Positions 11,420-55,950 of a stretch of 64,000 nt of DNA are shown here, piece after piece. Numbering within the stretch: the stretch's first letter is position 1; each line of letters starts with the position of its first letter. The position numbers and the translations under genes are program-made. The stretch is from Candidatus Kerfeldbacteria bacterium CG15_BIG_FIL_POST_REV_8_21_14_020_45_12. Its GTDB lineage: Bacteria; Patescibacteriota; Patescibacteriia; UBA9570; XYC2-FULL-38-9. The notes under the pieces were generated by a model. The model was not told where the DNA came from. It saw only the letters and a list, made by a program, of their open reading frames with translations, and did no database searches. Location of the stretch: the NCBI GenBank assembly GCA_002781785.1, contig PFGC01000041.1, forward strand, positions 145 to 64,144, read 5' to 3'.

Positions 11420-11434
11420 TTAAGTCCTCGCGGC

Positions 11435-12157: not shown

Positions 12158-12160
12158 TTT

Positions 12161-33283: not shown

Positions 33284-33285
33284 AT

Positions 33286-35134: not shown

Positions 35135-35137
35135 ACT

Positions 35138-35365: not shown

Positions 35366-35367
35366 AC

Positions 35368-36051: not shown

Positions 36052-36123
36052 CCAATAGCTTGAAACTCCAGCCAAAATACTGTACCCTTTCTTGGGTACA
36101 TTTTTGATCCTGATATACCACAT

Positions 36124-41979: not shown

Positions 41980-42602
41980 GAAACGATTTGACGTCTCTTT
42001 AGCTCAGCAATTAACTGTTCAACACATTCATCAACGCTGTTCACGCCTGTATCAACAACAACCTCTGCTGTTTTTGGCTCCTCGTAAGGTGCGTCAATTC
42101 CAGTAAAATCCTTAATTTCACCAGCTCTAGCTTTTTTATACAAACCCTTTGGATCACGAGACTCACAAACTTCTAAATCACATTTAACATAGACCTCTAA
42201 AAATTGATTACCCTCCACCAGAGACCTGGCTGAATCACGATCACTTCGGTAGGGTGAAATAAAGGAAGCCATCACCACAACACCTGCATCCACAAACAAT
42301 TTGGCGACTTCTCCTATGCGACGAATATTTTCTGTTCTATCTTCTGGGGAAAAACCTAAGTCAGCATTTAAACCATGCCTAATGTTATCTCCATCCAATC
42401 TATAAGCCAGATTACCTAGCTGGTTTAGTCTAGTTTCTAAAGCTACAGCTACAGTTGACTTACCGGATCCCGATAAACCCGTAAACCACAAAACAACTCC
42501 TTTTTGAGATAATAATTTTTCACGGTCAACACGTGTAATTTCTCCCTCGTGCCAAGTAACGTTGGTAGATTTGTTCATGAATATACCTATTGAATAGATC
42601 AA
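41976..42602 (-). CDS. cysC: Adenylyl-sulfate (APS) kinase
   Basis: P-loop VLWFTGLSGSGKSTVAVALE. The motifs DGDNIRHGLNADLGFS and ENIRRIGEVAKLF are diagnostic of APS kinase. Confidence 0.88.
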   Translation of the reverse strand: MIYSIGIFMNKSTNVTWHEGEITRVDREKLLSQKGVVLWFTGLSGSGKSTVAVALETRLNQLGNLAYRLDGDNIRHGLNADLGFSPEDRTENIRRIGEVAKLFVDAGVVVMASFISPYRSDRDSARSLVEGNQFLEVYVKCDLEVCESRDPKGLYKKARAGEIKDFTGIDAPYEEPKTAEVVVDTGVNSVDECVEQLIAELKRRQIVS

Positions 42603-42661: not shown

Positions 42662-43444
42662 TTAAAGAAAGCGCCTTGGCTTGCCAGTCAACCACAAAGC
42701 ATCAAACATAGACATCAAGGCTCTAGCAATGCGTCGATGTTGTATACGAATAATAATTCCCTCTTCAGGCGTCACAAAGTGAACTACGTCGTCATGGATA
42801 AAAAACTCTTCAAATGGAAAGCGCTCCTCAACAATAGAGCGAAGTTGCCAATTTCGTTTGCAAAACAAAGCATACGTCTCAGCCGACATCATATTCGGAA
42901 TAGCAGAAATCATTTCGTCAGGGAAAATAGCTCGGGTAATTATTTTATTCTTAACAAAAAGTTCAACGATTCCGTGCCACTCATCATTCGTAAAACCACC
43001 TAAGTCGGCTTTGGCGTTAGCTCGACCTTGAATCACTCTAAACTCACTCCCAGAAGGGAGAGAGGCCAATTCATGATAGGTGTCATAATGAGCCTCATTA
43101 AAATCTCTAATAGTTACAACAGGCGCGGATTCGTCCACACTCTGCAATGATCCTAATTTAGGTACCAAGTTAGAAAAATCTGCGGTCCACTTTTCAAAGC
43201 GTTGCAAAAGTGATGCCGGTGAAGTTGCTGAAAAATATTTAACCCCACTAACTTCGTGCACTTTTATAACTAATAAACGATGGAGTTCATCTAATTGAAA
43301 ATATATAGCTGAACGCTTCATGCCAACTTTACGAGCTATGGTGGAAGCAGGCAAGCGTCCAAATTTTAACAACACAAAATAGATTTTGGAGTGCTGCTCA
43401 GTCAAGCCAAAATTCTTAAATATTCTAATCAAACGCTGTTCCAT
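42662..43444 (-). CDS. TrmB-like HTH transcriptional regulator with a C-terminal ligand-binding-like domain
   Basis: N-terminus LTEQHSKIYFVLLKFGRLPASTIARKVGMKRSAIYFQLDELHRLLVIK follows the TrmB wHTH pattern. Divergent from 43586. Confidence 0.5.
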   Translation of the reverse strand: MEQRLIRIFKNFGLTEQHSKIYFVLLKFGRLPASTIARKVGMKRSAIYFQLDELHRLLVIKVHEVSGVKYFSATSPASLLQRFEKWTADFSNLVPKLGSLQSVDESAPVVTIRDFNEAHYDTYHELASLPSGSEFRVIQGRANAKADLGGFTNDEWHGIVELFVKNKIITRAIFPDEMISAIPNMMSAETYALFCKRNWQLRSIVEERFPFEEFFIHDDVVHFVTPEEGIIIRIQHRRIARALMSMFDALWLTGKPRRFL

Positions 43445-43585
43445 AAAATTACTATATCAAAATATATCTACATTGTCAAAAATAATTAACAACAAAAAAA
43501 CATACTTTTTTAGGTGTAAATTTAAAAAATACAAAAAAGTCAATTCAAATCAACATAAAATAAACAATTCTGCTATCCTGTAGCC
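43445..43585. promoter_or_regulatory. AT-rich divergent promoter/operator region between the TrmB-like regulator and the ATP-grasp gene
   Basis: 141 bp of A/T-rich sequence with poly-A tracts between divergently oriented genes. Likely contains both promoters and the regulator's operator. Confidence 0.35.
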
Positions 43586-44992
43586 ATGAATAAAGACCTG
43601 CTGGATAAAAACAGCTCCAAACCCAGAACTATAGTGGTATGTCCAGGGATAACTTTCCCTGACTGGATATACGCTGAAATAACTGGTCTGCGATATTTTG
43701 AAGAAAGGCTTTTATATTTCCTATTTCATTGTAAATATCCTGGACAACGACTTATCTACCTTCTATCTGAAGCGCTAGATCCAGAAGAATTACACTACTG
43801 GATCACAACAGCTGCCGCTGCCATGAACATGAGTTCACAGGTTTTAAAAGAACGACTCACAATAATAACCGTCAACGACACATCAGACAAAGGGCTAGCC
43901 CAAAAAATTCTAGCTAGCCCCAAAGTGATTGAGTTAATTAAAAATGAAATAACTGAAACATCAAATACCTACCTAGAAGTTTTTGCTGTTAGCCAACATG
44001 AGATACAACTAGCAAAAGACCTAGGCATCCCCTATTGGGGAAATACACCAACAGCCCTTAAGTATGACCAAAAAGGCCCAGCCCGAGAACTAGCTAAGTC
44101 AGTTGGCGTAAAGGTAGCGCCAGGTAAAGAAAATATTAATAATCTTACCGGCGCCTATGCTGCCTGGAAAGAGCTTGGCGCGAAACCCGGAAAATACATG
44201 CTCAAAATAAATACTGGTGACGGGGGTGTTGGTCTCTGGAAAATAGACATGTCACAAAATAAGGTCTTAGATTTTACAAACTTCCGTAAAACTATTCCAG
44301 AGACCAAGCTCACCGATAGACTTGAAGAGCTCCTAAGTAACGAAGGTGGAATACTGGAACAATATATTGAGGCACCAATAAAAATATCTCCGAGCATTCA
44401 GTACTTAGCGTGGAGCGCTACTGATTTTACTTACATAGGAGCCCACGAGCAAGATCTAGCCGATGATAAATACGTTGGCTCCTATTTTCCAGCTGAATCA
44501 GATCAAGCCAGCAGTATGCGCGAGGCCGGTGACCTAATCATGCATGAATTAATAAAAAACGGTGTCCGAGGACGAGTGTCCATGGATTTTCTTCTCACTA
44601 AAAACTCCCCTGAAGAAAAGTGGACAACCTATCTCATAGAATTGAACATCAGAAAAGGAGGAACTACTCACACCGAACAATGGGCTGAATACCTAACTGG
44701 AGCTCGCTTAACAGAAGGCTTGCTTACCAGGCAAGATAATAAACCGGTTTACTATTACAGCAGCGAAAAAGGTAGTCTTCGGGATGAATTTTCTCAGCTG
44801 TCAACGAGCAACTTCCTAGCCCAAGTAAATAAGGCGGGCCTTGCTTACTCTCAGTTAACACAAAGTGGTATATTTTTCCATCTACTATCCCAACGAGCAC
44901 CATTTCATAAAGTCGGGTATACTGCCATTGGACGTACTCGCTCTGAAACCATAGAGCTGAAGAAAAAATTTGAAGAAAAATTTGGTAAATAA
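43586..44992 (+). CDS. ATP-grasp-fold ligase-like protein (468 aa) with an N-terminal extension
   Basis: C-terminal YLIELNIRKGGTTH matches the ATP-grasp Mg-binding E-x-N motif. A Gly-rich KINTGDGGVGLWKID segment lies upstream. Confidence 0.45.
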   Translation: MNKDLLDKNSSKPRTIVVCPGITFPDWIYAEITGLRYFEERLLYFLFHCKYPGQRLIYLLSEALDPEELHYWITTAAAAMNMSSQVLKERLTIITVNDTSDKGLAQKILASPKVIELIKNEITETSNTYLEVFAVSQHEIQLAKDLGIPYWGNTPTALKYDQKGPARELAKSVGVKVAPGKENINNLTGAYAAWKELGAKPGKYMLKINTGDGGVGLWKIDMSQNKVLDFTNFRKTIPETKLTDRLEELLSNEGGILEQYIEAPIKISPSIQYLAWSATDFTYIGAHEQDLADDKYVGSYFPAESDQASSMREAGDLIMHELIKNGVRGRVSMDFLLTKNSPEEKWTTYLIELNIRKGGTTHTEQWAEYLTGARLTEGLLTRQDNKPVYYYSSEKGSLRDEFSQLSTSNFLAQVNKAGLAYSQLTQSGIFFHLLSQRAPFHKVGYTAIGRTRSETIELKKKFEEKFGK

Positions 44993-44995
44993 GCT

Positions 44996-46078
44996 ATGAG
45001 AGAAAGAAGAATTCAAACACTTGGAGATCTTAGTAGGGCTACAAAACAAGAGGGCCACAATGTAATCGAAGAACTTGAGGCCGATCTCATAACAGAAGTG
45101 CATACCCTAAAAGAAGCTCAGCAGCAATCAGCGGAACTCCTTAGTCAAGGTCAGGGCGTGCTACTAGTTGACACCACCCTGGGTAATGTACGACGAATTA
45201 TTGACGAGGGTAATAAGCGCTTTGCAGGCAATGCAAATTTAGAACTATACGCGCGAATGATAATATCTGCCCTACACGGCGGCTCAGAACCTACTGACTA
45301 TACAGACTTAATTGCCTCTTGGACTGGACTATCACGTGATCACATACAGACATTAGACATCAGAAATAGCGGATCACCCCAAGAGCTAGACACATCAATC
45401 AAGGCGGTGCTCTTCTCCGGCTCTCCATCACATCTACCGAATATAGGCAGTGGTAAAGAAATTAGACCAGGCATCACCGATGCTGATGTTTACAACCGAT
45501 CTCTAGCTGTTTGGCGCGAGGCTGTTAAAGCAGGCCTTCCAGAGTTTGGGATCTGTTATGGACTTCAGCGTGGTGCCAAGCATGTTGGTATGGATATTTT
45601 GCAGCAACCCGGCCGTTCCCAAGCCGGTGAAGCAACTCAGATCGTGACCCAAGAGGGAGTAGATATAATAAGCATGCTTGGCTGCACGACTGATCCAAGC
45701 GAATTAGCTGGAAGGATTTCTGCATTTCGTAGCGACGAAGTTCAAGGTACTCCAGATCCAAGATTTGCCTCTATTCTATTTACCCCACATGACCTTGACC
45801 CCAGTATGGTTTTTGGTCTAATCCACAATCCTCAAGGCACTGGCACTAGTCCAGAAATAATCAAACAAGTATTAGCCGCTGGTCAATCAGCTGGTTTAGA
45901 CATCCAAGGCCATCCAGAAATAAGACGCGGCGAACGAGCCCGAATTTCCGCCGGAGCTGGCCGTAACTTAGATAACATTCCACTGCGTTTGAATGGTTCA
46001 GATCAAGAACTATCAACGGCCATGCTAAAAATGATGACTGAGTTTTTCCGTCTTCACAAAAGAGCTGAGCGCGCTTAA
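44996..46078 (+). CDS. Class I glutamine-amidotransferase-like (GATase1 / C26 peptidase-like) protein with an about 150-aa N-terminal extension
   Basis: Nucleophile elbow FGICYGLQ (G-x-C-x-G-x-Q) and, near the C-terminus, the His-Pro-Glu motif LDIQGHPEI. Confidence 0.45.
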   Translation: MRERRIQTLGDLSRATKQEGHNVIEELEADLITEVHTLKEAQQQSAELLSQGQGVLLVDTTLGNVRRIIDEGNKRFAGNANLELYARMIISALHGGSEPTDYTDLIASWTGLSRDHIQTLDIRNSGSPQELDTSIKAVLFSGSPSHLPNIGSGKEIRPGITDADVYNRSLAVWREAVKAGLPEFGICYGLQRGAKHVGMDILQQPGRSQAGEATQIVTQEGVDIISMLGCTTDPSELAGRISAFRSDEVQGTPDPRFASILFTPHDLDPSMVFGLIHNPQGTGTSPEIIKQVLAAGQSAGLDIQGHPEIRRGERARISAGAGRNLDNIPLRLNGSDQELSTAMLKMMTEFFRLHKRAERA

Positions 46079-46119
46079 AATTACACTACGATTTTAAGCC
46101 AAGATCAGGCCAGATAAAA

Positions 46120-47166
46120 TTACCAGCTAATTCCGTCCAACTTATCGGCTCTAGCGTAAACAAATTGCTTAGCCTCTGGTAGCTGGTATGCCATACGTCG
46201 ACAAGCCTCGGTGATACTGGGGCTTAATTCACCCTTTATTCCAAAAGTTCCACCTGTTCTAAAAATTGCATCCTCCACTGCCTGTAAATTAGCGCCAACT
46301 AATCTGACTGAATCTGAATCATCTCTAACTGGCCCTCCACGGGGAACCTCTCCAGCGCTTTTTAAGAAATCTTCCAGGCTCAGAAAGGCGCCTTCCAAAT
46401 CTTGAATATCCTCACTAGTTAAAGGCTGTTCAGAATTACGCGTGGTAAATGGCTCAACAACAGCTAAAACTGAGTGTAATCTACTTGGATCATCTCCAAA
46501 CATCTCATTAAATCCCTGACTCTGCCTATCTCCCAATACAGCAACAAGACCTGTCACTGCGTACTGTGTTTCCAACATTCTTTCTTTGACTTGCGCCTGC
46601 CATTCCACGTCAATTTCAGCTCCCTCTACTTCACCCTCAGGAGCTGCTCCTAGGATCTGCTCAGACAAATCTTCAACGGCATCAGCTGCCGCTGGCTTAT
46701 CTCCCACCTCGACTTCCGCTACACCTTCATCCAGCTGAGCCTCCCACGTTTCAAAAGCCTCACGATTAGCGCGGGCATCCTTAATAAGCGTAAGTGCATC
46801 AAAGGCTGCTTGTAGATCAGCTTGTTGCTCGCGAAAACTCTCTTGTTGCGCCGGATCCTTAGACTGCGGGTCAAGTGTTCGCAGTCTCATTTCACGCACC
46901 TGAACATCTCCATCGATGACGTCGTACAGTCCTTCTGGCTGAGAGCCAGCAAAGCCTGGTAAAACTGATCTAACATAATCAGTTACCCTTTCAGCGCGCT
47001 GACCATCAATACCAACAGCGTCCATGCGGCCAGCCTGCTGCGCGTAATCTAAATATTTACTTAGAACGCCAATCCCCTCTCCGGCCGGCAAAAAACTCGG
47101 AGCTTGTTCAGTTGCCTCCTGGGCTGGTCTTTTACCTTTAGGATCGCCATTTGGGTTAAATGACAT
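46120..47166 (-). CDS. Hypothetical acidic Ala/Glu/Gln/Gly-rich protein with compositionally atypical, GC-richer codons
   Basis: ORF of 348 aa. Local GC is about 50-57% in sampled 60-nt stretches, versus about 45% nearby. No motif recognised. Confidence 0.35.
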   Translation of the reverse strand: MSFNPNGDPKGKRPAQEATEQAPSFLPAGEGIGVLSKYLDYAQQAGRMDAVGIDGQRAERVTDYVRSVLPGFAGSQPEGLYDVIDGDVQVREMRLRTLDPQSKDPAQQESFREQQADLQAAFDALTLIKDARANREAFETWEAQLDEGVAEVEVGDKPAAADAVEDLSEQILGAAPEGEVEGAEIDVEWQAQVKERMLETQYAVTGLVAVLGDRQSQGFNEMFGDDPSRLHSVLAVVEPFTTRNSEQPLTSEDIQDLEGAFLSLEDFLKSAGEVPRGGPVRDDSDSVRLVGANLQAVEDAIFRTGGTFGIKGELSPSITEACRRMAYQLPEAKQFVYARADKLDGISW

Positions 47167-47243
47167 ATTCTATATCTAAATAATCATTACTAAAACTATA
47201 GCACTTTGTAGCGTAAAAGTCAAATACTTATTTCTCTTCTACT

Positions 47244-48635
47244 CTATTCAATAACCTTGCCGCGCATGTCACTTGGTACGCCCTGACCAAAGTCTGCGAG
47301 AATAGATGGCGTAACATCTAGAATATCCAAATCATCCCGCTTCCCCTGCCCTGCCACAGCCGGATCATATTTTACAAAGATTCCGTTCCAGTCATGTACA
47401 CCATAATCTAAACCACGATCATCCTGATCAATGTAATGACTATCATATCCAAGCGTGCCGGCTACTTTCCAATACAAGTCTCCCCAAAAAATTAGTAAGT
47501 CTGGGACATCTCCAGTGGCTTCTGGATATAATTCTGTAGCTCTATATATCTTGTGCTCTAAAACCTGACCATCAGGACCTGCTACCTGCATGAGCTTGCC
47601 TCTTAGCTCCTCGATAAAACTTTCATACTCAGCCTCAGGTACGACGCCTTGAGGCTCTCGTCCCTCCAAGTTAACAAACAGTCGAGCGTAAAAACCACCC
47701 CACGCCCAGGCGCGAGTTTTGGACCAGTCTACATCACACTTTTCAATACTAGTTGGTTCCTTTGGTTTATTCTTTAACACCAAATAGCCATTATCAATTA
47801 ACCATTCATTGATAACAAACATACCTTCCATCCGCTTAGCTCCGTGATCAGACACCACATAAAAAATCGTGCCCTCAGGTGCTAAAGCCTGCAAATCTCC
47901 AATCCACCTATCAATGTGTCTATAATATTCACGAATCTTTTCCTCGTAAGGATTTCCAGCTTCGTAATCTTTGTGCTCTGGATCCATGTACTGCCACAGA
48001 TAGTGATGAATACGATCTACACCCATCTCTACCATCATCAAGAAATCCCACTCTTTCTCTGTAATCCATTGCTTGAAAATCTTTTGCCGCTGATCGGTCA
48101 TTTTATAGATAACATCCAGCACCTCATCAGGTGGAGCCTGAGTACGATTTGCAAAATCGAAGATGTAGTCATCTGGAGCGACCGCATCTAAAATTTCCTT
48201 TTTTAGCTCAGCTGGATAAGTAAACTCAACATCTGTACCAGGTGTCAGAAAACTTGAAACCATCATTCCATTCACAGGCCTAACTGGATAAGTTTGAGGA
48301 ACTCCCAACATGCCGACTTTTTTTCCGGCGTCACCCAAATATTCCCAAACTCGTTTCTCCTTAACCATGCCACCATGAGCAATATCCATTTCGCCATAAT
48401 CAGAACCGGGTGTACGGGATCTGAAACCATAAATACCCAAATCACCAGCATGTTTGCTAGTGGTCATAGCCGCCCAAGCTGGCACTGTAATTGGTGGGAT
48501 AGTACTTTTTAGTGGGCCCCAAGTGCCTTGCTTCATCATGGCCGCAATATTCGGCAAATCTTCTTGATAACGATCAAACACCAGTTGCGGGGTCGCACAG
48601 TCTAATCCAATAACGATAACTTTAGGTTCACTCAT
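47244..48635 (-). CDS. Alkaline-phosphatase-superfamily enzyme, NPP/type-I-phosphodiesterase-like (463 aa, cytoplasmic), paralog of 36124..37755
   Basis: N-terminus KVIVIGLDCATPQLV and TIPPITVPAWAAMTTSKHAGDLGIYGF align with the paralog's GLDGATW and nucleophile region. Confidence 0.7.
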   Translation of the reverse strand: MSEPKVIVIGLDCATPQLVFDRYQEDLPNIAAMMKQGTWGPLKSTIPPITVPAWAAMTTSKHAGDLGIYGFRSRTPGSDYGEMDIAHGGMVKEKRVWEYLGDAGKKVGMLGVPQTYPVRPVNGMMVSSFLTPGTDVEFTYPAELKKEILDAVAPDDYIFDFANRTQAPPDEVLDVIYKMTDQRQKIFKQWITEKEWDFLMMVEMGVDRIHHYLWQYMDPEHKDYEAGNPYEEKIREYYRHIDRWIGDLQALAPEGTIFYVVSDHGAKRMEGMFVINEWLIDNGYLVLKNKPKEPTSIEKCDVDWSKTRAWAWGGFYARLFVNLEGREPQGVVPEAEYESFIEELRGKLMQVAGPDGQVLEHKIYRATELYPEATGDVPDLLIFWGDLYWKVAGTLGYDSHYIDQDDRGLDYGVHDWNGIFVKYDPAVAGQGKRDDLDILDVTPSILADFGQGVPSDMRGKVIE

Positions 48636-48638
48636 ATT

Positions 48639-49655
48639 CTATGATAATTGATCAAGCAAAAACTTCTCTACTTTTGGCAAAAAATCTGACAGTGTCATGT
48701 CCAATAAAACAATGCCAGCGACCTCAGGCTTGCCACCAGAATTTTGTCCTAGCCCCCTCGCAAACTCTGTAACCTTACGACAATCAATCTTGTCTGTACG
48801 TGTTCGAATATAGACCATATCAAGTCCACCTTTGCTCTGCCAAGTTAGCACTACTTTATCAGCAAACTCTCGAGCCTTGGCCCGAGTAGCCTCGGACAAG
48901 ACGCTAACTTCCGAAATAAATTCAAAAGACACTAAATCGGCCGATTCTATGTATGTTTTCGGTTCCTGATTCAAAACCCGCTTTAATTCATCAGAAATTT
49001 TTTGTTCATTCATTACAAATCTAGCATCAGTCAATACCAACTTTGGATCACGCCGTAAAATATCAATCGTATCAGCCATGCCCCGTGAATCACCCAACAT
49101 ATACATCGTATCGACCAATTTAGTGAGGCGCATAATTCCAGGCCAATCCAAACCTGACTCCTCCATCATTTCTCTTACTTGTGGCCAAAACTCCGCCTCA
49201 TCGCGAATCGCCTCTTCCTTATCCCCAACCGCACCAAGTACCGATACTAATGACAGCGGCTTCATCAAGTAATCATTAATCAGCATCGATGCAGATGGGT
49301 ATTTAGTGTCCTGCAAACCCGGTCGATCAATATCAGCAGTCTGAGCGTGATTATCAAAAACAAACAACAACCCACCTTCTTCTAGTCGCGTTATCGTATC
49401 AAGCGGGGCATTAAAATCCATCATTACAACGGCATCAGCTCCGTAAGCAGCTATCCGTTCAAACTCCTCATTCACTAGAAAATAACGATTGATGGTGGGG
49501 TGTTCGATTATAATTTCAGTGGCCGGAGAGACCTCCTCAAAAAAATTAATGAAGAGTGCGCAGCTGGCCAAACCATCGCAGTCCCAATGGTACAGTAAGA
49601 CTACCTTCGCAGGTTTTGCAGTCGATACCCACTCCTGAAAATCTGGATGTAGCAT
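48639..49655 (-). CDS. DHH-family phosphoesterase (NrnA-like), probable 3'-phosphoadenosine-5'-phosphate (pAp) phosphatase / nanoRNase
   Basis: N-terminal DHH motif I/II region VVLLYHWDCDGLASCAL, as in NrnA (H..PDGDA.GS), and DNHAQT (DHH-like motif III). Start and stop abut sat and the AlkP-like gene. Confidence 0.6.
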   Translation of the reverse strand: MLHPDFQEWVSTAKPAKVVLLYHWDCDGLASCALFINFFEEVSPATEIIIEHPTINRYFLVNEEFERIAAYGADAVVMMDFNAPLDTITRLEEGGLLFVFDNHAQTADIDRPGLQDTKYPSASMLINDYLMKPLSLVSVLGAVGDKEEAIRDEAEFWPQVREMMEESGLDWPGIMRLTKLVDTMYMLGDSRGMADTIDILRRDPKLVLTDARFVMNEQKISDELKRVLNQEPKTYIESADLVSFEFISEVSVLSEATRAKAREFADKVVLTWQSKGGLDMVYIRTRTDKIDCRKVTEFARGLGQNSGGKPEVAGIVLLDMTLSDFLPKVEKFLLDQLS

Positions 49656-50831
49656 CTACTCAACAAACAAGGACTTCTGCTGCAGTAACATTTCAACAAT
49701 CTGCGGACGCATGATATCTGCTGGCACAGGTTGTCCAGCGCTAAGTAGATCACGAATTTTTGTTCCAGAAGGCGGCACACGAACATCGTCACCGTGACCA
49801 CAAGTCTTAGAGGTAGCTACTGTTTCACAAGTCTTACACATGAATGAGTGCTCAAACTTAAGAATTTTAATTCCAATTTCATCCTCGATGCCTTCAAAAA
49901 TTTTCTGAGCAGCATAAGTGCCATAATAATCTCCTACCCCAGCATGATCTCGCCCAACCACAAAATGTGTACAGCCAAAATTCTTACGAATGATGGCATG
50001 TAAGACAGCCTCACGTGGACCAGCGTAATTCATGCGAGCCGGTAAAATTGAAAAAGTAGCGCTCTCACGTGGAAAGAAGTTCTCAATCATAAAATGATAG
50101 GCCTTAATGATGACCTCATCTTGAAAATCTCCTGTTTTTTTCTTTCCAATAATCGGATTTATAAATAATCCATCAGTTAACTCTAAGGCACACCGCTGTA
50201 GATATTCGTGCGCTCGATGTGGCACATTTCTTGTTTGAAATCCAGCTACCGTTTTCCAACCTCGCTCTTTAAATAAGTATCTAGTTTCCGCTGGATCTAA
50301 ATTAACTTCGTAATATGGCTCCTTTGTATTATCAATCAAATCAATAAGCCCACCAACTAAACGTGACTTCATGGCCTGCCAGTGAGCCACTCCCGGATGC
50401 GCCGAATCATCAGTTCCGTAAACAAAACGAGCCACATGCGCCGCGTCATAACCGTAAATATCACCAACGTGCAATACAGCGATTAAATTACCGGTCGCAT
50501 CCTGCAAAGCTACCTCATCTCCGGTGTTCATATTTGAAGCATCTTCTTCTGACACATCCAACACGAATGGTATAGACCAAATTGTCCCGTCAGCCAGTCT
50601 CATCTCTTCCACCACCCGCACAAAATCAGACTCATTCATGAATCCTGTCAGTGGACTTAAAACTCCCCGGGCAATATTTTTTACATCTTTAACCTGCTCA
50701 TCATCTAAGGTTAGAGAAAATTTTCCGGCCAGTCTGGTTTTTGCCTCAGCTGCATGCGCCTCACTGAGCACTCTATTAACTAACGTGTTGCCATGTGGTG
50801 GTATTAAAATATGTTCCATAACCTTAATCAA
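49656..50831 (-). CDS. sat: Sulfate adenylyltransferase (homo-oligomeric ATP sulfurylase type)
   Basis: Diagnostic motifs GFQTRNVPHRAHEYLQ (QTRN...HRAH) and VVGRDHAGVG (GRDHAG). Confidence 0.88.
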   Translation of the reverse strand: MIKVMEHILIPPHGNTLVNRVLSEAHAAEAKTRLAGKFSLTLDDEQVKDVKNIARGVLSPLTGFMNESDFVRVVEEMRLADGTIWSIPFVLDVSEEDASNMNTGDEVALQDATGNLIAVLHVGDIYGYDAAHVARFVYGTDDSAHPGVAHWQAMKSRLVGGLIDLIDNTKEPYYEVNLDPAETRYLFKERGWKTVAGFQTRNVPHRAHEYLQRCALELTDGLFINPIIGKKKTGDFQDEVIIKAYHFMIENFFPRESATFSILPARMNYAGPREAVLHAIIRKNFGCTHFVVGRDHAGVGDYYGTYAAQKIFEGIEDEIGIKILKFEHSFMCKTCETVATSKTCGHGDDVRVPPSGTKIRDLLSAGQPVPADIMRPQIVEMLLQQKSLFVE

Positions 50832-51021
50832 TATATCCTAATGATTTCAAGCGCTCCTTGATTTTAGCCTCATCATGATCTTGGTAAACAGCTCCGGCAG
50901 CTTTAAGTGAATCTCCCAGCATTTCTTGGACAAGCTGATCCACTGTGACTCCGCGCTGGGTAGCCATTTGATCTAGCTTTATAAATAAATCTTCACTGAT
51001 TTGTACGGGCTTATTCGTCAT
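50824..51021 (-). CDS. Small (65 aa) ribbon-helix-helix-like protein, paralog of 35138..35365
   Basis: QISEDLFIKLDQMATQRGVTVDQLVQEML is an RHH-like strand plus helices. C-terminal tail IKERLKSLGYID is shared with the ORF at 35138..35365. Overlaps sat by 8 nt and the GT2 gene by 11 nt. Confidence 0.45.
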   Translation of the reverse strand: MTNKPVQISEDLFIKLDQMATQRGVTVDQLVQEMLGDSLKAAGAVYQDHDEAKIKERLKSLGYID

Positions 51022-51976
51022 GGTGATCTTCCATTATTTTTTCTAATGTTTGCCTCTTTGCAAAATATAGTGCCTCTTCAGAAACTTTGCGCGTCCAACC
51101 CATTGAGGAGCCAAGCATGCCAAGCATTAGGCTATTAAAACTAAGAATAATAAGCACTCCAGCTAAGGTCAGGGACTGTAAATGACCACTACCCTCACCA
51201 ACTAGGTATAAATAAAACCACCGCAGGATTGGAATTATTCCAATTAAAAACAGAAAAATTGCATTGAGCCCAAAGAATCTCAGCGGCCTAAATAAAACTA
51301 TGTTACGAACAATATTCTCACCTGCCTTCCAAACATGGCTGGGTACGCTTTTAATGAGTCGTGACTCTCGCGTGACTTGCCTGGCTTTAATCGGCACCTC
51401 CATAACGCCCAATCTCTGATCCTGGGCTGACAACAAGGTGGTGTGTACATAAGTGTGCAAAGAATAAACTTGCAAGCGCAACGCCGCATCTTTACTATAG
51501 CCACGGAAACCAGTCGAAACATCATACTTTGGCATGCCGCTCCACTTGGTGAACATCCAACTACCAAACCTGTTCAGGTGCTTGTTCCAAAACGGCATGT
51601 GGTCTAGCTCAGCCACCTTGCGGGAACCAATAGTAATCTCGGCTCTACCTTCAACAACCGGTGCTATTAACTCAGGAATTCTTGATTGGTCGTAATGATT
51701 ATCACCGTCAGTATTTACAATAACGTCAGCGCCACGAATTAGCGCTTCCCATAAAGCTTGCTTAAAGGTCATGGCCAAGCCCTTGTTGCGCTTACGTTCA
51801 ATAACGTAATCAGCGCCAGCCTCACGTGCAATTTCGCATGTGCGATCGCTCGAACCATCGTCAACCACCAGAACCTCTACCTTATCAATACCAGGAATCG
51901 ACCTTGGAATTTCACGAATAACTTCAGCAAGGTTTTCCTCTTCATTAAATACTGGGATGGTGACGATTAATTTCAT
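51011..51976 (-). CDS. GT2 polyprenyl-phosphate glycosyltransferase (GtrB/DPM1-like) with C-terminal TM helices
   Basis: MKLIVTIPVFNEEENL, DDGSSDRT and a DGD motif, plus C-terminal hydrophobic helices. Paralog of 5172..6110. Confidence 0.8.
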   Translation of the reverse strand: MKLIVTIPVFNEEENLAEVIREIPRSIPGIDKVEVLVVDDGSSDRTCEIAREAGADYVIERKRNKGLAMTFKQALWEALIRGADVIVNTDGDNHYDQSRIPELIAPVVEGRAEITIGSRKVAELDHMPFWNKHLNRFGSWMFTKWSGMPKYDVSTGFRGYSKDAALRLQVYSLHTYVHTTLLSAQDQRLGVMEVPIKARQVTRESRLIKSVPSHVWKAGENIVRNIVLFRPLRFFGLNAIFLFLIGIIPILRWFYLYLVGEGSGHLQSLTLAGVLIILSFNSLMLGMLGSSMGWTRKVSEEALYFAKRQTLEKIMEDHHDE

Positions 51977-51985
51977 ATTCAGATA

Positions 51986-53311
51986 CTAGGATTTTTGGTC
52001 ACCAAACTCACCGTTACGCCCGATAGAAATGTAGGTCAATCCATGTTCCCGCATTCGTTCAGGTTGGAAGAGATTTCTACCATCAAATATCACTGGATTT
52101 GCAACGAGACGAGCAACTTTTGCCCAATCTAGTTCAATAAACTGTGGCCACTCGGTGGCAATTACCACAACATCAGCTCCGTTAACACAATCATAAGGGT
52201 CTTCTGCATAACGAACTGCCACACCCTCAAGAGCACGCTGAGCATTCTTGGTAGCCTCATAGTCAAAGGCTGAAACATCTGCCCCATTTTCAGCAAACAT
52301 TCTAACGATATCAACTGCCGCCGATTCTCTAATGTCGTCCGTATTACCCTTAAAGGCTAAGCCTAATATGGCGATCTTCTTTCCAGTCAGCTTGCCTTCA
52401 AAGTGTTCCATGACCTTGGCCACAAAATGTTTCCTTTGATCATTATTCACCTCAATAACAGCGGACAAGAGCTTAAAATCATAGCCATACATTCCGGCCA
52501 TTTGATCAAGTGCTTCTACATCCTTTGGGAAACATGAGCCTCCCCAGCCTATGCCGGCTTTCAAAAAGCGTGGTCCAATTCTACTATCTAAACCAATACC
52601 GTAGGCCACCTCTTCAATATCAGCCCCGGCTCGCTCACAAATCTGTGCGATCTCATTGATGAATGAAATTTTTGTTGCCAAAAAGGCGTTGCTGGCATAC
52701 TTAATCAATTCGGCACTTTCAACCGTAGTTACCAACTTCTCTCCACGGATACCTTTAAATACCTCGAGCAAGACCTGCGCAGCTCGATCATCCCTGGCTC
52801 CAATTACCACTCGGTCAGGTTTCATAAAATCTTCAACGGCAGAACCTTCGCGTAAAAATTCTGGGCAAGACACTACACTAAACTCACCAGAATAGTTTTT
52901 TCGAATGATATCCTCTACCTCTTTACCAGTCCCAACCGGAACCGTACTTTTATTGACGATCGCTGTATATTTTTTCAAATTCTGCCCGATCTGCTCGGCA
53001 ACGGCATAGACATATTGCAAATCTGCATGTCCGTCTGGGCGAGACGGTGTTCCCACGGCGATGACAATGACATCTGTCTTATCTATCACATCCGGCAGCG
53101 AGGTTGTAAATTTAAGGCGGCCGACTCGCACGTTACTCAAAACTAGTGCATCTAGTCCCGGCTCAAAAATTGGAATCTCCCCTTTCTCTAAACGCTTAAT
53201 TTTATCCTCGTCTATATCAACACAGGTCACTGAGTGGCCAATTTCTGCAAGGCATGTTCCTGAGACCAATCCTACGTACCCGGTCCCGACAACTGTAATA
53301 TTCATAGTCAA
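51986..53311 (-). CDS. ugd: UDP-glucose 6-dehydrogenase
   Basis: NITVVGTGYVGLVSGTCLAEIGHSVTCVDIDEDKIKRL, catalytic Cys region GWGGSCFPKD, and a C-terminal UDP-binding domain. Confidence 0.9.
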   Translation of the reverse strand: MTMNITVVGTGYVGLVSGTCLAEIGHSVTCVDIDEDKIKRLEKGEIPIFEPGLDALVLSNVRVGRLKFTTSLPDVIDKTDVIVIAVGTPSRPDGHADLQYVYAVAEQIGQNLKKYTAIVNKSTVPVGTGKEVEDIIRKNYSGEFSVVSCPEFLREGSAVEDFMKPDRVVIGARDDRAAQVLLEVFKGIRGEKLVTTVESAELIKYASNAFLATKISFINEIAQICERAGADIEEVAYGIGLDSRIGPRFLKAGIGWGGSCFPKDVEALDQMAGMYGYDFKLLSAVIEVNNDQRKHFVAKVMEHFEGKLTGKKIAILGLAFKGNTDDIRESAAVDIVRMFAENGADVSAFDYEATKNAQRALEGVAVRYAEDPYDCVNGADVVVIATEWPQFIELDWAKVARLVANPVIFDGRNLFQPERMREHGLTYISIGRNGEFGDQKS

Positions 53312-53399: not shown

Positions 53400-54341
53400 T
53401 CACACGTCAACTGAAAAACCACCACTCTTAAACCATTCCCAGGTTTGCTCAATTCCTTCATTTAATGACACCTCTGGCTGCCAATTAAACTTTTCAGCAA
53501 ACAATTGACTAGCAATGGCGCTTCGCTTGAGCTCACCAACAATAGCTTCCGTGTGTTTTACTTCAATTGGATTGCCATAAACACGCTCAATAGCTCCAAC
53601 GATCTGATTTACGGAAGTTTCCTGTCCGGTTCCCACATTATAATCGCCAGCGATTCCACTTCCCATTTGGTCAACTACTGCCACAAAGGCGGCCACCGCG
53701 TCATCTATATACAGATAGTCACGCGTCTGGTTGCCGTCCCCATAAATAGTTAACGGCTGTCCTGCTAATAATCTTTCAATGAATATAGAAACCACTCCAG
53801 CCTCGCCGGCCGGATCTTGTCGTGGTCCAAAAATATTTGCCAGTCGCATAGTAACACCATTCATGCCAAAGCGATTGGAATAGTAACGAAGGTACAACTC
53901 CCCTGCCCGTTTTGTTATCGTATAAGGAGACTGCGGATCAATCGACGCCGTCTCTGGTGTTGGAATTTCTTGCGCCTCACCATAGATCGTACCACCAGTT
54001 GATGCCAGTACAACATTTTTCACATTATGCTTTCTGGACGCCTCCAATATTCTCAATAGTCCAATTACATTTAATTCTGCATCAAACACCGGATCGTCAA
54101 ATGACGGACGCACCCCCTTCTGCGCTGCAAAGTGTAGCACAGCGTCAAAATTTCCAGATACAAATATATCATCGATGCCCGGGTCGGTAATCGATAAATT
54201 TAAAAAAATTGCCTCTTGATTGACGTGGTGCTCGTGCCCATAAGACAGATCATCAACCACTGTAATCAGGTGATCATCAACTAAGGCGTCGACCACATGT
54301 GACCCAATAAATCCAGCTCCTCCTGTAACCAAAATATTCAT
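53400..54341 (-). CDS. NAD-dependent epimerase/dehydratase (GalE-like UDP-hexose 4-epimerase)
   Basis: TGGAGFIGSH and YTITKRAGE (YxxxK). Confidence 0.75.
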   Translation of the reverse strand: MNILVTGGAGFIGSHVVDALVDDHLITVVDDLSYGHEHHVNQEAIFLNLSITDPGIDDIFVSGNFDAVLHFAAQKGVRPSFDDPVFDAELNVIGLLRILEASRKHNVKNVVLASTGGTIYGEAQEIPTPETASIDPQSPYTITKRAGELYLRYYSNRFGMNGVTMRLANIFGPRQDPAGEAGVVSIFIERLLAGQPLTIYGDGNQTRDYLYIDDAVAAFVAVVDQMGSGIAGDYNVGTGQETSVNQIVGAIERVYGNPIEVKHTEAIVGELKRSAIASQLFAEKFNWQPEVSLNEGIEQTWEWFKSGGFSVDV

Positions 54342-55438
54342 GACTCGGATTCTTGCTCGTGAGTTGGCTCAGGTGCCGGTGACAATCCACTGGCCATCGA
54401 ATTTTTAGCTGCGGACTCATCAACCAAAGACGAATATGACAAGACTCGCGATCCTTTCATATTATCAACAGTGCGCTCCAAGCCAGATCTAAGATCAGTA
54501 ACAGGAAACCACCCGAGGTAACGCTTCGCCCGCGATATGTCAGGAGGCGAAAACCTAACCAAACCCTTCACCGCATCACCAAACAGAAGATTAGATTTAG
54601 AAGCGGTCAAATCAATTATGTACTGAGCTACAGTTATTATTTTATGTGTCTCTGGATTTCCTAAATTGACCGGGTCATTCGTATTACTTTGCATCAGAGC
54701 TACAATACCTTGAACCATGTCGGAAACATAACAGTAACTATCCTCCTCAGTACCGTCACCCAATACCTCTAAATCTTGCTGATCCAAAGCTGCTTTTACT
54801 AAGTCAGGAATCTGACGACCGGAACGCAATGCCATACGCGGACCGTAGGTATTAAATATTCTGGCAATCTTTGTGTCCATGCCGTAAGCCAAGTGATAAG
54901 TAGATGTGAGAGTTTCTCCAAAGCGCTTACCCTCGTTGTAACAGGCTCGCTCTGACATTGGATCTACAAATCCCCAGTAATCTTCCTGAAAAGATTCTTG
55001 TCCATCCAATGGATCTCCGTAAACTGCTCGAGTTGAACCGAACAGGAACTTGGCATTATACTTTTTAGCAATTTCCAAGGAATTAACAACGCCGACTGAG
55101 TTAGCTTGAGCGGTAGCCACAGCGTAACCCTCAAATCCCATCTGATAGGTAGGACAAGCCATATTGTAAACTTCTTGGATACCTTGAAACCTAACTTGAA
55201 AAATCTCGGTATCTGGCAAAGACTCCAAATCGATCGGCTCTGTAATATCGTGTCGCAAAAATACAAAGTTTGGATGCTGCAGTAGATGTTCTATGTTTTG
55301 TACTGAGCCACTTGCGTAGTTATCAATACAAATAACCTTGGAGGTCTTTATCAGTTCATCACAAAGATGTGAACCAATAAAACCAGCACCGCCAATGACC
55401 AGGACGTTCTTTTTATCGAAAATGACTTTACGTGCCAT
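54338..55438 (-). CDS. uxs: UDP-glucuronate decarboxylase (UDP-xylose synthase)
   Basis: VLVIGGAGFIGSHLCDELIK..VICIDNYASGSVQNIEHLLQHPNFVFLRHDITEP parallels the UXS N-terminus (..LDNFFTG...N..H...HPNFEL.RHDV). It sits adjacent to, and downstream of, ugd and the epimerase. Confidence 0.8.
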   Translation of the reverse strand: MARKVIFDKKNVLVIGGAGFIGSHLCDELIKTSKVICIDNYASGSVQNIEHLLQHPNFVFLRHDITEPIDLESLPDTEIFQVRFQGIQEVYNMACPTYQMGFEGYAVATAQANSVGVVNSLEIAKKYNAKFLFGSTRAVYGDPLDGQESFQEDYWGFVDPMSERACYNEGKRFGETLTSTYHLAYGMDTKIARIFNTYGPRMALRSGRQIPDLVKAALDQQDLEVLGDGTEEDSYCYVSDMVQGIVALMQSNTNDPVNLGNPETHKIITVAQYIIDLTASKSNLLFGDAVKGLVRFSPPDISRAKRYLGWFPVTDLRSGLERTVDNMKGSRVLSYSSLVDESAAKNSMASGLSPAPEPTHEQESES

Positions 55439-55503: not shown

Positions 55504-55950
55504 TTATTCAACCTTCTCAAAATCCTCGTTGGAGTTATACAGATCCTCCCGGCGTGGGAAGGTCCAAAATTTCTGTAAGGCAAAGTTTAAGCCGCCAGCA
55601 CTAACTCCAGCCATCACCTTAGCTATTACGTCGTAAACGTCAAACTGACTAACAAACAGCCATAATAATGTCTGATTAAGTGCCAAAGCAATGCCAGATG
55701 ATGAATAAAAACGAATCAGTTGGCCGTGAGTAAACCGCAATTTGTCATTAAAGGTCCAATGCTTATTCCAAATAAATCCATTCACACCTGAGACTAAAAA
55801 TGAAATGACAGCCGCCGTCAGGTAATGATCTCCAAACCACGGAATACCTCTAGTTAAACCAAGATAAACTAAAACGTCTAGGGCAGTATTGCCAACGCCT
55901 ACCACCCCAAATCTCACCAATTGTCCAAATAAGTTTTTCATATATTTCAA
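55504..55950 (-). CDS. GtrA-family membrane protein (polyprenyl-phosphate-sugar translocase-like)
   Basis: RFGVVGVGNTALDVLVYLGL is a GtrA-like first helix. Four TM helices in about 148 aa. Confidence 0.7.
   Translation of the reverse strand: MKYMKNLFGQLVRFGVVGVGNTALDVLVYLGLTRGIPWFGDHYLTAAVISFLVSGVNGFIWNKHWTFNDKLRFTHGQLIRFYSSSGIALALNQTLLWLFVSQFDVYDVIAKVMAGVSAGGLNFALQKFWTFPRREDLYNSNEDFEKVE

Follow-up and report, generated by a model that had tools for sequence, protein, structure and literature searches.

Clusters for the PAPS-dependent sulfation of glycans and lipids include cysDN-cysC-cysQ of Bacteroides with its BT_0416 sulfotransferase, rhizobial NodPQ/NodH and the cyanobacterial xss genes for sulfated EPS. 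Within the AlkP superfamily, dedicated sulfate-ester chemistry normally relies on formylglycine and a single metal; at two-metal sites of this superfamily, sulfuryl transfer is, to our knowledge, solely a weak promiscuity, and we know of no genomic linkage of NPPs to PAPS synthesis. The assimilation locus of Methanothermococcus thermolithotrophicus comprises ATPS, APSK, MtPAPP, PAPS reductase and Fsr (Jespersen et al. 2023, PMC10322725), with MtPAPP, encoded beside ATPS and APSK, being an experimentally specific PAP phosphatase whose reported homologues come from archaea (PMC10322725). In Haloferax volcanii, Agl7-dependent sulfation acts on a dolichol-phosphate-bound hexose (Kaminski et al. 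2013, PMC3892788).

The locus described here comes from a bacterial (CPR) host, Candidatus Kerfeldbacteria, and was analysed within a 64 kb stretch of DNA, referred to as the window. Like the PAPS sulfation clusters, it groups activation genes, a pAp phosphatase and a putative consumer with glycan/lipid biosynthesis and has no reductive branch. Unlike them, it contains no Sulfotransfer_* protein, has a homo-oligomeric type of Sat instead of CysDN and a DHH-type (MtPAPP) pAp phosphatase instead of CysQ, and harbours both an NPP-fold enzyme (AlkP1) within the operon and an RHH protein with a conserved tail. With the M. thermolithotrophicus locus it shares Sat, CysC and a DHH-family PAP phosphatase homologous to MtPAPP, but it lacks PAPS reductase and Fsr, and differs further in the D-N-H motif of the DHH protein, the AlkP1 gene and the glycan biosynthesis context. 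The region is probably the core of a cassette that uses PAPS to sulfate a lipid-linked envelope glycoconjugate.

Gene content and sulfate activation

The features concerned, in descending order of coordinates, are:

55504-55950, minus strand: GtrA-like flippase component (Pfam), upstream conserved block
53400-55438, minus strand: two NAD epimerases/dehydratases (Pfam), upstream conserved block
51986-53311, minus strand: UDP-glucose 6-dehydrogenase (UGDH; Pfam), upstream conserved block
51011-51976, minus strand: GT2 glycosyltransferase of the polyprenyl-phosphate sugar synthase type, its C terminus bearing membrane segments (Pfam Glycos_transf_2, E 3e-18)
50824-51021, minus strand: small protein of RHH type (65 aa) whose gene opens the sulfate module, tail ...DEAKIKERLKSLGYID
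49656-50831, minus strand: Sat, ATP sulfurylase (Pfam PUA_2 3.7e-50, ATP-sulfurylase 1.4e-87; NCBIfam sulfate adenylyltransferase 1.7e-151)
48639-49655, minus strand: DHH/DHHA1 phosphoesterase, MtPAPP lineage (Pfam DHH E 8e-6 and DHHA1 E 2e-3, both below gathering scores)
47244-48635, minus strand: AlkP1, NPP-like AlkP-superfamily enzyme, 463 aa (PF01663 Phosphodiest, E 9e-47)
46120-47166, minus strand: acidic ORFan, 348 aa (64 D+E vs 33 K+R)
44996-46078, plus strand: GATase-like protein (Pfam), part of the insert
43586-44992, plus strand: PGM1-like ATP-grasp protein (Pfam), part of the insert
42662-43444, minus strand: TrmB-family regulator (Pfam), part of the insert
41976-42602, minus strand: CysC, APS kinase (Pfam APS_kinase 5e-72)
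40243-41979, minus strand: PMT_2 (GT-C) glycosyltransferase (Pfam), downstream gene of the ancestral operon
39560-40246, minus strand: CDP-alcohol phosphatidyltransferase (Pfam), downstream gene of the ancestral operon
36124-37755, plus strand: AlkP2, second PF01663 paralogue, 543 aa (Pfam 3.8e-38; TAPAW nucleophile motif, SDHG)
35138-35365, plus strand: second RHH protein with LGY tail, 75 aa, tail ...DQEDAVKDRLESLGYLD

The genes for the RHH protein, Sat, the DHH protein and AlkP1 all lie on the minus strand and are tightly coupled, with ORFs at the coordinates reported in the first-pass annotation, whose span (46120-51021) also takes in the acidic ORFan that it left unmentioned. Sat abuts the DHH gene as had been described, the TAG stop codon being followed without a gap by the DHH ATG, whilst the reported 4 nt between the DHH gene and AlkP1 was correct to within one base, with 3 nt separating stop and ATG. 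The claimed 8 nt overlap of RHH and Sat requires Sat to start at TTG 50831; the probable true start, ATG 50819, leaves a 4 nt gap that is also seen in the closest relative, and coupling is tight whichever start applies. The GT2 gene is the immediate upstream neighbour of the module, its end overlapping the RHH ORF, and holds this position in L001, L006, L008, L088, L089 and L090 as well. CysC, with ATG 42578 as its probable start, overlaps the downstream PMT_2 gene by 4 nt and is translationally coupled to it; glycosyltransferase genes on both flanks are coupled to sulfate-activation genes.

Both Sat (QTRN, HRAH, GRD) and CysC (GLSGSGKS, DGD, FISP) possess intact motifs, so that sulfate should be convertible via APS to PAPS. 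As judged from these sequences, the module would make PAPS and remove pAp, in line with the original proposal, and disposal of this inhibitory by-product would fall to the DHH protein. The sole PDB sequence match of the latter is the M. thermolithotrophicus PAP phosphatase MtPAPP (8A8K, E 2e-14); conserved residues comprise H23, D25, D27, D80, D101, H103, D145 and GGKPEV, with motif III reading D-N-H in place of D-H-H in this genome. An NrnA identity was rejected because the only PDB relative is a specific PAP phosphatase, making the initial label of 'NrnA-like' imprecise.

With regard to the consumption of PAPS, Pfam scans of the 57 window ORFs of at least 120 aa returned no match to PAPS reductase, sulfite reductase or Sulfotransfer_*, and a motif scan of the window gave no credible match to the 5′-PSB motif, bearing out the first-pass annotation on each of these absences. 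CysH, sulfite reductase and canonical sulfotransferases are likewise not recurrent in 90 AlkP1 loci, and the surroundings (±10 kb) of six related loci from Patescibacteria are free of reductase genes. Given a lipid-linked glycan operon and no reductive branch in 64 kb, a sulfated envelope glycoconjugate, as first suggested, is the parsimonious product.

Ancestral operon, lineage-specific insert and the RHH tail

In the closest relatives the genes are contiguous in the order GT2-RHH-Sat-DHH-AlkP1-CysC-PMT_2-CDP-OH transferase, and the ancestral order is this series preceded by UGDH. The operon is unbroken in L089 (82 % identity), L001, L006, L007, L008 and L088; CysC-PMT_2-CDP-OH order is kept in L001, L006, L007, L088 and L089, and the upstream block (UGDH, NAD epimerases/dehydratases, GtrA-like) is also found in L001, L088, L089 and L090. 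In the window, a lineage-specific four-gene insert splits the operon between AlkP1 and CysC. It is because of this insert that CysC, which directly follows AlkP1 in relatives, lies 4.6 kb from it, within the same cluster as previously noted. The insert is absent from this junction in L001, L005, L006 and L089, whilst L090 has a different one of 221 aa. Its first gene is the acidic ORFan, with a promoter-like site upstream (47223-47195). No Pfam, NCBIfam or PADLOC match was obtained for this ORFan, and its sole match among 1.84 billion representatives is its own sequence; the exact protein occurs on at least 20 metagenome contigs.

The window RHH protein (50824-51021) has no Pfam match, and its family comprises >6700 clusters with the source names CopG or Arc-MetJ RHH regulator. 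A C-terminal peptide, …RLxxLGY[IL][DE], is common to the ends of RHH proteins, many CysC and some AlkP paralogues, the tail being fused to CysC or AlkP paralogues in other lineages. Codon-position analysis indicates selection on the peptide, not RNA, and the RHH protein and tail probably regulate or physically dock components. The second RHH and LGY-tail protein is encoded two genes upstream of AlkP2, which itself belongs to a neighbouring CDP-alcohol/glycerol-1-phosphate-dehydrogenase-like sub-cluster. AlkP2 also lies beside the module in L001, L088, L090 and the archaeal L085, and COG3379-type paralogues are expanded around sulfate operons.

Genomic linkage, active site and fold of AlkP1

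Flanking sequence was sufficient in 69 AlkP1 loci; of these, 54 have Sat and/or CysC in the same orientation and no more than 3 kb away, and 46 have both, with median gaps of ~60 nt. The loci derive from >10 bacterial phyla as well as Bathyarchaeota, Micrarchaeota, Nitrososphaeria and Odin-labelled archaea; such linkage, recurring in dozens of loci from bacteria and archaea alike, is far beyond chance. Orthologues are 45-50 % identical between domains, a conservation equal to that of Sat and CysC, and fusions exist as single ORFs of 970 aa (Sat-AlkP1, L012) and 646 aa (AlkP1-CysC, L072). In an archaeal, Aciduliprofundum-like locus (L091) the order is RHH-tail - Sat - DHH - Sulfotransfer_1 - CysC, with the canonical sulfotransferase in the exact position that AlkP1 occupies in the window. 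A sample of loci ascertained via the RHH-tail, and not via AlkP1, yielded 23 informative members (L138 and L139 being duplicates): 17 have AlkP1, five a small canonical sulfotransferase, none both and one neither (Fisher one-sided p = 2e-4, a statistic that ignores phylogenetic non-independence). In a few short loci Sat is directly followed by CysC, with neither enzyme between.

AlkP1 orthologues also occur in exosortase/EPS and glycan loci without Sat/CysC (Isosphaeraceae, Verrucomicrobia), which fits a glycan-modifying enzyme better than generic nucleotide clean-up. Recurrent neighbours include NAD epimerases, UDP-sugar dehydrogenases, GHMP kinase, SIS isomerase, an inositol-phosphate-synthase-like gene and GT4/GT2 enzymes.

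The active site of AlkP1 is of NPP type, Thr50 being the nucleophile and the ligands of both metals all being present, and its catalytic residues are invariant across 59 homologues; such a site is typical of phosphoryl, not sulfuryl, transfer. The structure prediction advised in the first-pass annotation gave a confident model (pLDDT 94.8). The base-stacking Phe beside the nucleophile in NPP is Val in AlkP1, and the nearest folds are phosphodiesterases (ENPP6, ENPP7, phosphonoacetate hydrolase). Identity to NPPs (Xanthomonas NPP, ENPP1-7) and PhnA is only 13-18 %, and AlkP1 differs from these in being cytoplasmic, with no signal peptide, and in having at residues ~265-400 a large, conserved insertion, rich in beta structure, in which Trp and Arg residues are invariant.

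Candidate roles of AlkP1

That the AlkP-fold protein supplies the missing transferase, as had been put forward, draws real comparative backing from conserved gene order across phyla, fusions and exclusivity with sulfotransferases, and has the NPP-type phosphoryl-transfer site against it. An alternative, which we consider unlikely, is a hydrolase that assists sulfate activation, either a pyrophosphatase pulling the unfavourable ATP sulfurylase reaction or a pAp 3′-phosphatase (CysQ analogue), with the true sulfotransferase elsewhere in the genome. A two-metal/Thr site with an NPP/AP-like fold typically goes with phosphoryl transfer to water, and conservation on a par with Sat and CysC suits a universal small-molecule substrate (PPi, pAp) no less than it does a glycan acceptor. 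The Sat and CysC fusions, moreover, parallel the APS kinase-ATP sulfurylase-pyrophosphatase triple fusions known in some eukaryotes. The DHH gene is missing from AlkP1 loci outside Patescibacteria but present in three of the five informative sulfotransferase loci, a pattern that might also arise if AlkP1 stands in for the PAP phosphatase; the fast evolution of the DHH gene (40 % identity where AlkP1 shows 72 %) and its lost DHH-motif His in this lineage would be compatible with redundancy. Despite this, AlkP1 and an MtPAPP-type DHH gene are adjacent in every Patescibacteria locus, so that a second pAp phosphatase would be redundant there, and a hydrolase leaves unexplained the strict alternation of AlkP1 and a canonical sulfotransferase in one slot, the EPS/glycan loci without Sat or CysC, and the expansion of COG3379-type paralogues.

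We also doubt a pathway-specific role for AlkP1 as a phosphodiesterase, phosphatase or phosphomutase acting on a phosphorylated glycan precursor (sugar phosphate, nucleotide-sugar or CDP-alcohol transferase product), linked to Sat/CysC only because another enzyme sulfates the final polymer. Its closest folds do act on small head-group esters, its neighbours recurrently include sugar-metabolism and GT4/GT2 genes, AlkP2 resides in a CDP-alcohol transferase cluster, a setting in which one expects a phosphatase step, and JGI names the family 'AlkP superfamily phosphohydrolase/phosphomutase'. Such an enzyme would, however, be unexpected between Sat and CysC in dozens of unrelated lineages without nearby glycan genes (e.g. 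Anaerolineae, Bathyarchaeota), as would its fusion with either and its alternation with a sulfotransferase. Least credible, and in our view highly improbable, is that Sat, CysC and DHH serve assimilatory sulfate reduction, with reductases outside the window and an incidental glycan context, even though MtPAPP was discovered in just such an assimilatory locus (PMC10322725). The lack of reductases in 64 kb and around the six related loci speaks against this, as does translational coupling to glycosyltransferases on both sides. The reduced biosynthetic capacity of Patescibacteria points the same way.

The best overall explanation, a PAPS sulfation cassette with AlkP1 as the PAPS-consuming step, is one we hold to be evenly balanced between right and wrong; that AlkP1 itself is a non-canonical sulfuryl-transferase is a tentative reading, a little short of even. 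Under this proposal, Thr50 would attack the sulfur of PAPS, releasing pAp and leaving a sulfo-Thr intermediate, from which a nucleotide-sugar or polyprenyl-phosphate-linked sugar would accept the sulfuryl group on a hydroxyl. The reaction would be a ping-pong transfer comparable to those of EptA/MCR-1 (phosphoethanolamine) and LtaS (glycerophosphate), which belong to the same superfamily and provide a precedent for moving charged head groups via a covalent Thr onto envelope glycoconjugates. Flipping of the sulfated sugar (GtrA/Wzx) would follow, and the GT-C enzyme would attach it on the outside of the cell; in the Agl7 system, for which no homology is claimed, a lipid-linked sugar is similarly sulfated in the cytoplasm before flipping. 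A literature search found no biochemical characterisation of any AlkP1-family member. Since AlkP1 sits in a slot filled elsewhere by an ordinary sulfotransferase, this uncharacterised family, which adjoins PAPS-synthesis genes in >10 phyla, may, if the proposal is true, represent a new kind of sulfate-transferring enzyme.

The sulfate module and its setting

The open reading frames of the module were found where the first-pass annotation had placed them, and all are encoded on the minus strand:

50824-51021, minus strand: RHH-like ORF, without a Pfam match
49656-50831, minus strand: Sat (Pfam PUA_2, 3.7e-50, and ATP-sulfurylase, 1.4e-87; NCBIfam sulfate adenylyltransferase, 1.7e-151)
48639-49655, minus strand: DHH/DHHA1 protein (weak Pfam matches, under gathering scores)
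47244-48635, minus strand: AlkP1 (PF01663, E 9e-47)
41976-42602, minus strand: CysC (Pfam APS_kinase, E 5e-72)

The DHH gene starts directly 3′ of the Sat stop codon, and its own stop is separated from the AlkP1 start by 3 nt. Two start codons are available for Sat: a TTG at 50831, which would result in an 8-nt overlap with the RHH ORF, and an ATG at 50819, which leaves a 4-nt gap after the RHH stop, the same as that seen in the closest relative (L089). Sat displays the PUA-like N-domain and catalytic domain of homo-oligomeric ATP sulfurylases, with QTRN199, HRAH205 and GRD293 intact, and CysC retains the P-loop GLSGSGKS42, DGD70 and FISP114 of APS kinases. Genes for the conversion of sulfate to APS and on to PAPS, and of pAp to AMP, are present and, as judged from their sequences, appear functional.

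The DHH protein has a sole sequence match in the PDB, 8A8K (phmmer, E 2e-14, residues 16-327), which is the Mn-dependent, highly pAp-specific, DHH-family PAP phosphatase of Methanothermococcus thermolithotrophicus (MtPAPP), a type of enzyme reported from 168 archaea, and whose gene adjoins those of ATPS and APSK (PMC10322725). On this alignment the window protein is a homologue of MtPAPP across both the DHH and DHHA1 domains. The Mn ligands of MtPAPP are His6, Asp8, Asp10, Asp57, His76, His77 and Asp127 (MtPAPP numbering), with H23, D25, D27, D80, H103 and D145 being kept in the window protein. In the window and its two closest relatives, Asn102 replaces the first His of motif III, giving D-N-H; the other 11 homologues have D-H-H. 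An earlier NrnA-like label for this gene is not borne out: alongside the sub-threshold Pfam scores, NCBIfam gives weak RecJ matches only, no NrnA structure is matched by sequence in the PDB, and the DHHA1 domain carries GGKPEV; the protein is not an NrnA in the strict sense. It evolves much faster than its neighbours, with 40 % identity to its counterpart in L001, a patescibacterial relative, compared with 69 % for Sat, 72 % for AlkP1 and 65 % for CysC. Amongst AlkP1 loci, the DHH gene partners AlkP1 in Patescibacteria only.

Pfam analysis of every ORF of 120 aa or more (57 in all) reveals the window to be a 64-kb envelope-glycan cluster, containing GT4 and GT2 enzymes, two PMT_2 GT-C enzymes, Wzx-type flippases, GtrA, nucleotide-sugar enzymes and CDP-alcohol transferases. 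The module genes are translationally coupled to, and embedded in, a polyprenyl-phosphate-sugar glycosylation system (GT2, GtrA, GT-C). These 57 ORFs yielded neither a PAPS nor a sulfite reductase, and no Sulfotransfer_* family member. The first-pass annotation had likewise seen no canonical sulfotransferase in the window, and this holds: the 5′-PSB motif scan is negative, none of the 57 ORFs, AlkP1 included, has a Sulfotransfer_* Pfam match, and nine small sulfotransferases from related operons, used as tblastn queries, return zero matches in the window. ORFs that lack a Pfam match encode proteins of the membrane or the extracytoplasmic space, or else a PaaK-like ligase. Four were considered, and rejected, as a hidden sulfotransferase: 2596-4107 and 18939-21338 each carry one membrane segment, at the N-terminus, 27772-29958 contains 15 such segments, and the PaaK-like ligase is encoded at 16983-18818. 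It is highly improbable that the module serves assimilation, and we infer that its product is a sulfated envelope glycoconjugate.

A number of further features of the cluster deserve description. In the 611-aa protein at 16983-18818 (minus strand), a PaaK/F390-synthetase-like adenylating domain is followed by a ParB/SerK-like domain at the C-terminus (NCBIfam ADP-dependent serine kinase, E 1e-14), an unusual fusion within a glycan cluster. A plus-strand sub-cluster at 32552-37755 encodes an NTP_transf_3 protein, a glycerol-1-phosphate-dehydrogenase-like Fe-ADH_2, a CDP-alcohol transferase, an RHH-tail ORF, a second NTP_transf_3 protein and the 543-aa AlkP1 paralogue AlkP2, and looks like a pathway for CDP-activated polyol-phosphate decoration. 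It is kept beside the sulfate module in the relatives L001 and L088, and in part (an AlkP2-like gene) in L090; an AlkP2-like gene is also found near the module in the Odin-labelled archaeal locus L085. The latter additionally harbours a TauE/SafE-family anion permease between Sat and AlkP1 (L085:9192-9950), possibly the cassette's importer of sulfate; the window itself showed no recognisable sulfate transporter.

The closest AlkP1 homologues (64-82 % identity) derive from Patescibacteria/Kerfeldbacteria assemblies. In L089 (82 %), the genes run unbroken as GtrA, epimerase, epimerase, UGDH, GT2, a 64-aa ORF, Sat, DHH, AlkP1, CysC, PMT_2 and CDP-OH transferase, an order matched in L001, L006, L007, L008 and L088. 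Since the relatives are contiguous, the window's 4.6-kb gap between AlkP1 and CysC represents a lineage-specific insert of four genes (42662-47166), comprising an acidic ORFan of 348 aa (46120-47166), a GATase-like protein, a PGM1-like ATP-grasp protein and a TrmB regulator; the insert that L090 (77 %) carries at this junction is a different one. No relative of the ORFan exists among 1.84 billion representatives, and the identical protein occurs on at least 20 metagenome contigs, one of them 367 kb in length, demonstrating that the arrangement is real and recurrent. With neither flanking repeats nor meaningful PADLOC matches, the idea of a mobile or defence element was dropped on present evidence.

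Family, fold and genomic partners of AlkP1

AlkP1 belongs to a large family (>7600 word-index matches) and is strongly conserved, with 45-50 % identity to homologues from Chloroflexota, Acidobacteriota, Bathyarchaeota and others. A sequence search against the PDB returned zero matches, a profile search only marginal ones, and no NCBIfam model matches the protein. The AlphaFold model is confident (pLDDT 94.8), and the predicted core fold lies nearest to the NPPs, placing AlkP1 in the NPP/PF01663 branch of the alkaline phosphatase superfamily, with sequence identity to the compared structures being only 13-18 %.

Scores of the AlkP1 model against compared structures
ENPP6: 29.8
ENPP4: 29.4
Xac NPP: 29.4
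Phosphonoacetate hydrolase: 26.7
PhoK / PafA: about 24
Sulfatases: about 22
EptA / LtaS: 15-19

D12, T50, D207, H211, D263 and H264 do not vary across 59 sequences, and H414 is at least 90 % conserved; these residues, six metal ligands and a Thr nucleophile, make up a complete NPP-type two-metal site. T50, within the motif P-P-I-T-V-P-A-W, occupies the alignment column of Thr90 in Xac NPP and of the formylglycine Cys in an arylsulfatase. Whereas NPPs have T-F-P-N-H at this site, with a nucleotide-stacking Phe following the nucleophile, AlkP1 has T-V-P-A-W; the C/S-x-P-x-R motif of formylglycine sulfatases (PF00884) is absent from the nucleophile position, and the protein has no signal peptide. 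A conserved, beta-rich insertion at approximately residues 265-400 bears invariant Trp and Arg residues.

A scan of one genome per species yielded 80 AlkP1 loci, for which linkage was counted by tblastn; simple ORF calling gave antisense ORFs in high-GC loci (cluster 4). Sat and/or CysC lies within 3 kb on the same strand in 54 of the 69 loci with enough flank, and both do so in 46 of the 69, most commonly in the order Sat-AlkP1-CysC with median gaps of ~60 nt. The loci derive from Patescibacteria, four classes of Chloroflexota, Aminicenantes and other Acidobacteriota, Verrucomicrobiota, Thermodesulfobacteriota, Omnitrophota, Ignavibacteriota, Eisenbacteria and Actinomycetota, and, within the archaea, from Bathyarchaeota, Micrarchaeota, Nitrososphaeria and Odin-labelled archaea. 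Fusions occur on either side: Sat and AlkP1 form one 970-aa ORF in Ardenticatenia (L012:8549-11461), and AlkP1 and CysC one of 646 aa in Nitrosopumilaceae (L072:5260-7200). Complete genomes that hold all three genes include CP070759.1, OY969762.1 and CP070811.1; among accessible carriers are Ignavibacterium album, Ktedonobacter and Singulisphaera, and, for the operon type with a sulfotransferase, Aciduliprofundum boonei. The 15 loci lacking Sat and CysC are mainly from Isosphaeraceae, with some from Verrucomicrobia, and here AlkP1 lies amid exosortase, epimerase and GT4 genes. NAD epimerases, UDP-sugar dehydrogenases, GHMP kinase, a SIS isomerase and further COG3379-type AlkP paralogues also recur nearby. 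Canonical sulfotransferases are not among the genes that recur at the AlkP1 loci.

In five loci (L018, L076, L078, L080 and L082), three to four COG3379-type paralogues of 430-790 aa, some with a membrane anchor or fused TPR repeats, surround a central AlkP1. Sat and/or CysC is present in L018, L078 and L082, and absent in L076 and L080. Such clustering would be expected of enzymes that have diversified in their specificity for acceptors or substrates.

Slot occupancy and a shared C-terminal peptide

In L091, from an Aciduliprofundum-like archaeon, the gene order (8001-14930) is RHH, Sat, DHH, a 186-aa Sulfotransfer_1 protein, CysC, a sulfate symporter, a 211-aa ORF and a Phosphodiest protein. 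This locus shares the skeleton of the window, with a canonical sulfotransferase occupying the AlkP1 position. Canonical sulfotransferases of ~190 aa (NYIVSGLERSGTS...) reside within RHH-Sat-DHH-CysC operons at six loci (L091, L129, L132, L138, L142 and L144), all on uncultured archaea-like contigs and often with a Na+/sulfate symporter, L091 adding a 3′ AlkP2-like gene.

As a guard against ascertainment bias, metagenomes were scanned with the RHH profile rather than with AlkP1, and loci were deemed informative where Sat was present with at least 2.2 kb downstream (n=23). AlkP1 is found in 17 of the 23 and a small sulfotransferase, carrying the 5′-PSB motif GLERSGTS, in five; no locus has both and one has neither (Fisher one-sided p = 1.8e-4 for exclusivity, a value that ignores shared ancestry and includes two loci that are duplicates). 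In some shorter loci CysC directly follows Sat. Either/or occupancy of a single slot, while the pAp phosphatase stays the same in the archaeal and CPR operons, is the classic signature of non-orthologous displacement.

The RHH-like proteins form a family of >6700 clusters, annotated at source solely as CopG or Arc/MetJ regulators. Two copies lie in the window, neither with a Pfam match, and one homologue reaches RHH_1 weakly (E 0.05):

50824-51021, minus strand: RHH ORF ending ...DEAKIKERLKSLGYID
35138-35365, plus strand: RHH ORF ending ...DQEDAVKDRLESLGYLD, two genes upstream of AlkP2

Their C-terminal peptide, the LGY tail, takes the form [FY]-[ST]-x-acidic(3)-x-x-[IV]-x-x-R-L-x-x-L-G-Y-[IL]-[DE], where acidic denotes E or D. 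It ends small RHH proteins just 5′ of Sat in CPR, Aminicenantes and Bathy-, Micr- and Odin-labelled archaea, and also CysC in Anaerolineae, Ktedonobacteraceae, Omnitrophota and others, some AlkP1 orthologues (L012, L038), AlkP2-like paralogues (L047, L065), and PF00884-like proteins with Thr at the formylglycine position (L049, L071), the tail-bearing loci spanning L002-L155. The tail is present at 49 of 57 loci with Sat and CysC, versus 7 of 22 with neither. Third codon positions vary freely (0.51 versus 0.78 and 0.86), and Arg and Leu swap codon families, indicating selection on the peptide rather than on RNA and leading us to reject a leader RNA or similar nucleotide element. The acidic stretch that precedes the tail is unlikely to contain a tyrosine-sulfation site, as the aromatic residue is often Phe. 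We read the tail as a putative docking or regulatory peptide of the module.

Candidate roles of AlkP1 and their significance

AlkP1, already put forward as a candidate transferase by the first-pass annotation, would perform sulfuryl transfer via Thr50, by analogy to the covalent-Thr group transfer of EptA and LtaS. A sulfotransferase role is ranked first, chiefly because of the either/or slot occupancy and because the pAp phosphatase is constant between the archaeal and CPR versions of the operon; we hold it to be plausible, if a little short of an even call. Against it, the active site looks phosphoryl-transferring, and AlkP1 is conserved in the manner of a small-molecule enzyme. Those same features could suit a pathway-specific phosphodiesterase or other phosphoesterase, which we consider rather unlikely, or an accessory pyrophosphatase or pAp phosphatase, which is unlikely; it is the alternation with a canonical sulfotransferase that places both behind sulfuryl transfer.

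A wider proposal builds on AlkP1 as a sulfotransferase: that it and its COG3379-type paralogues may constitute a new class of PAPS sulfotransferases, built on the NPP/alkaline-phosphatase fold and acting through a covalent sulfo-threonine, that the Sat-AlkP1-CysC cassette may have spread horizontally over more than 10 bacterial phyla and several archaeal lineages, and that the LGY peptide, borne by RHH proteins, CysC and AlkP paralogues, may dock them to the PAPS-making enzymes. Taken jointly, these points are advanced tentatively, as possible rather than probable. There is nonetheless a substantial chance that a sulfotransferase class of a categorically new kind lies behind the finding.

Glycan clusters with PAPS cassettes are already known. 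Many genomes possess Sat and CysC, yet are without a reductase or recognisable sulfotransferase, and to our knowledge sulfated envelope glycans are barely documented in bacteria or archaea outside a few model systems. MtPAPP is likewise known, from archaea (PMC10322725). In the literature searched, no description was found of the AlkP1 family, of the pan-phylum Sat-AlkP1-CysC unit or its fusions, of the alternation of AlkP1 with canonical sulfotransferases, of a bacterial MtPAPP-type enzyme, or of the LGY tail. Should AlkP1 instead act as an accessory hydrolase, the module with its five parts (RHH-tail, Sat, optional DHH, AlkP1 and CysC) and the shared tail would remain conserved and apparently undescribed features of sulfate activation. 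If AlkP1 consumes PAPS, the orphan Sat and CysC of a very broad set of uncultured lineages, including Patescibacteria, Chloroflexota, Aminicenantes, Bathyarchaeota, Nitrososphaeria and others would be explained, a third structural solution for biological sulfuryl transfer would be added, and metagenomes would gain a marker gene for sulfated glycoconjugates.
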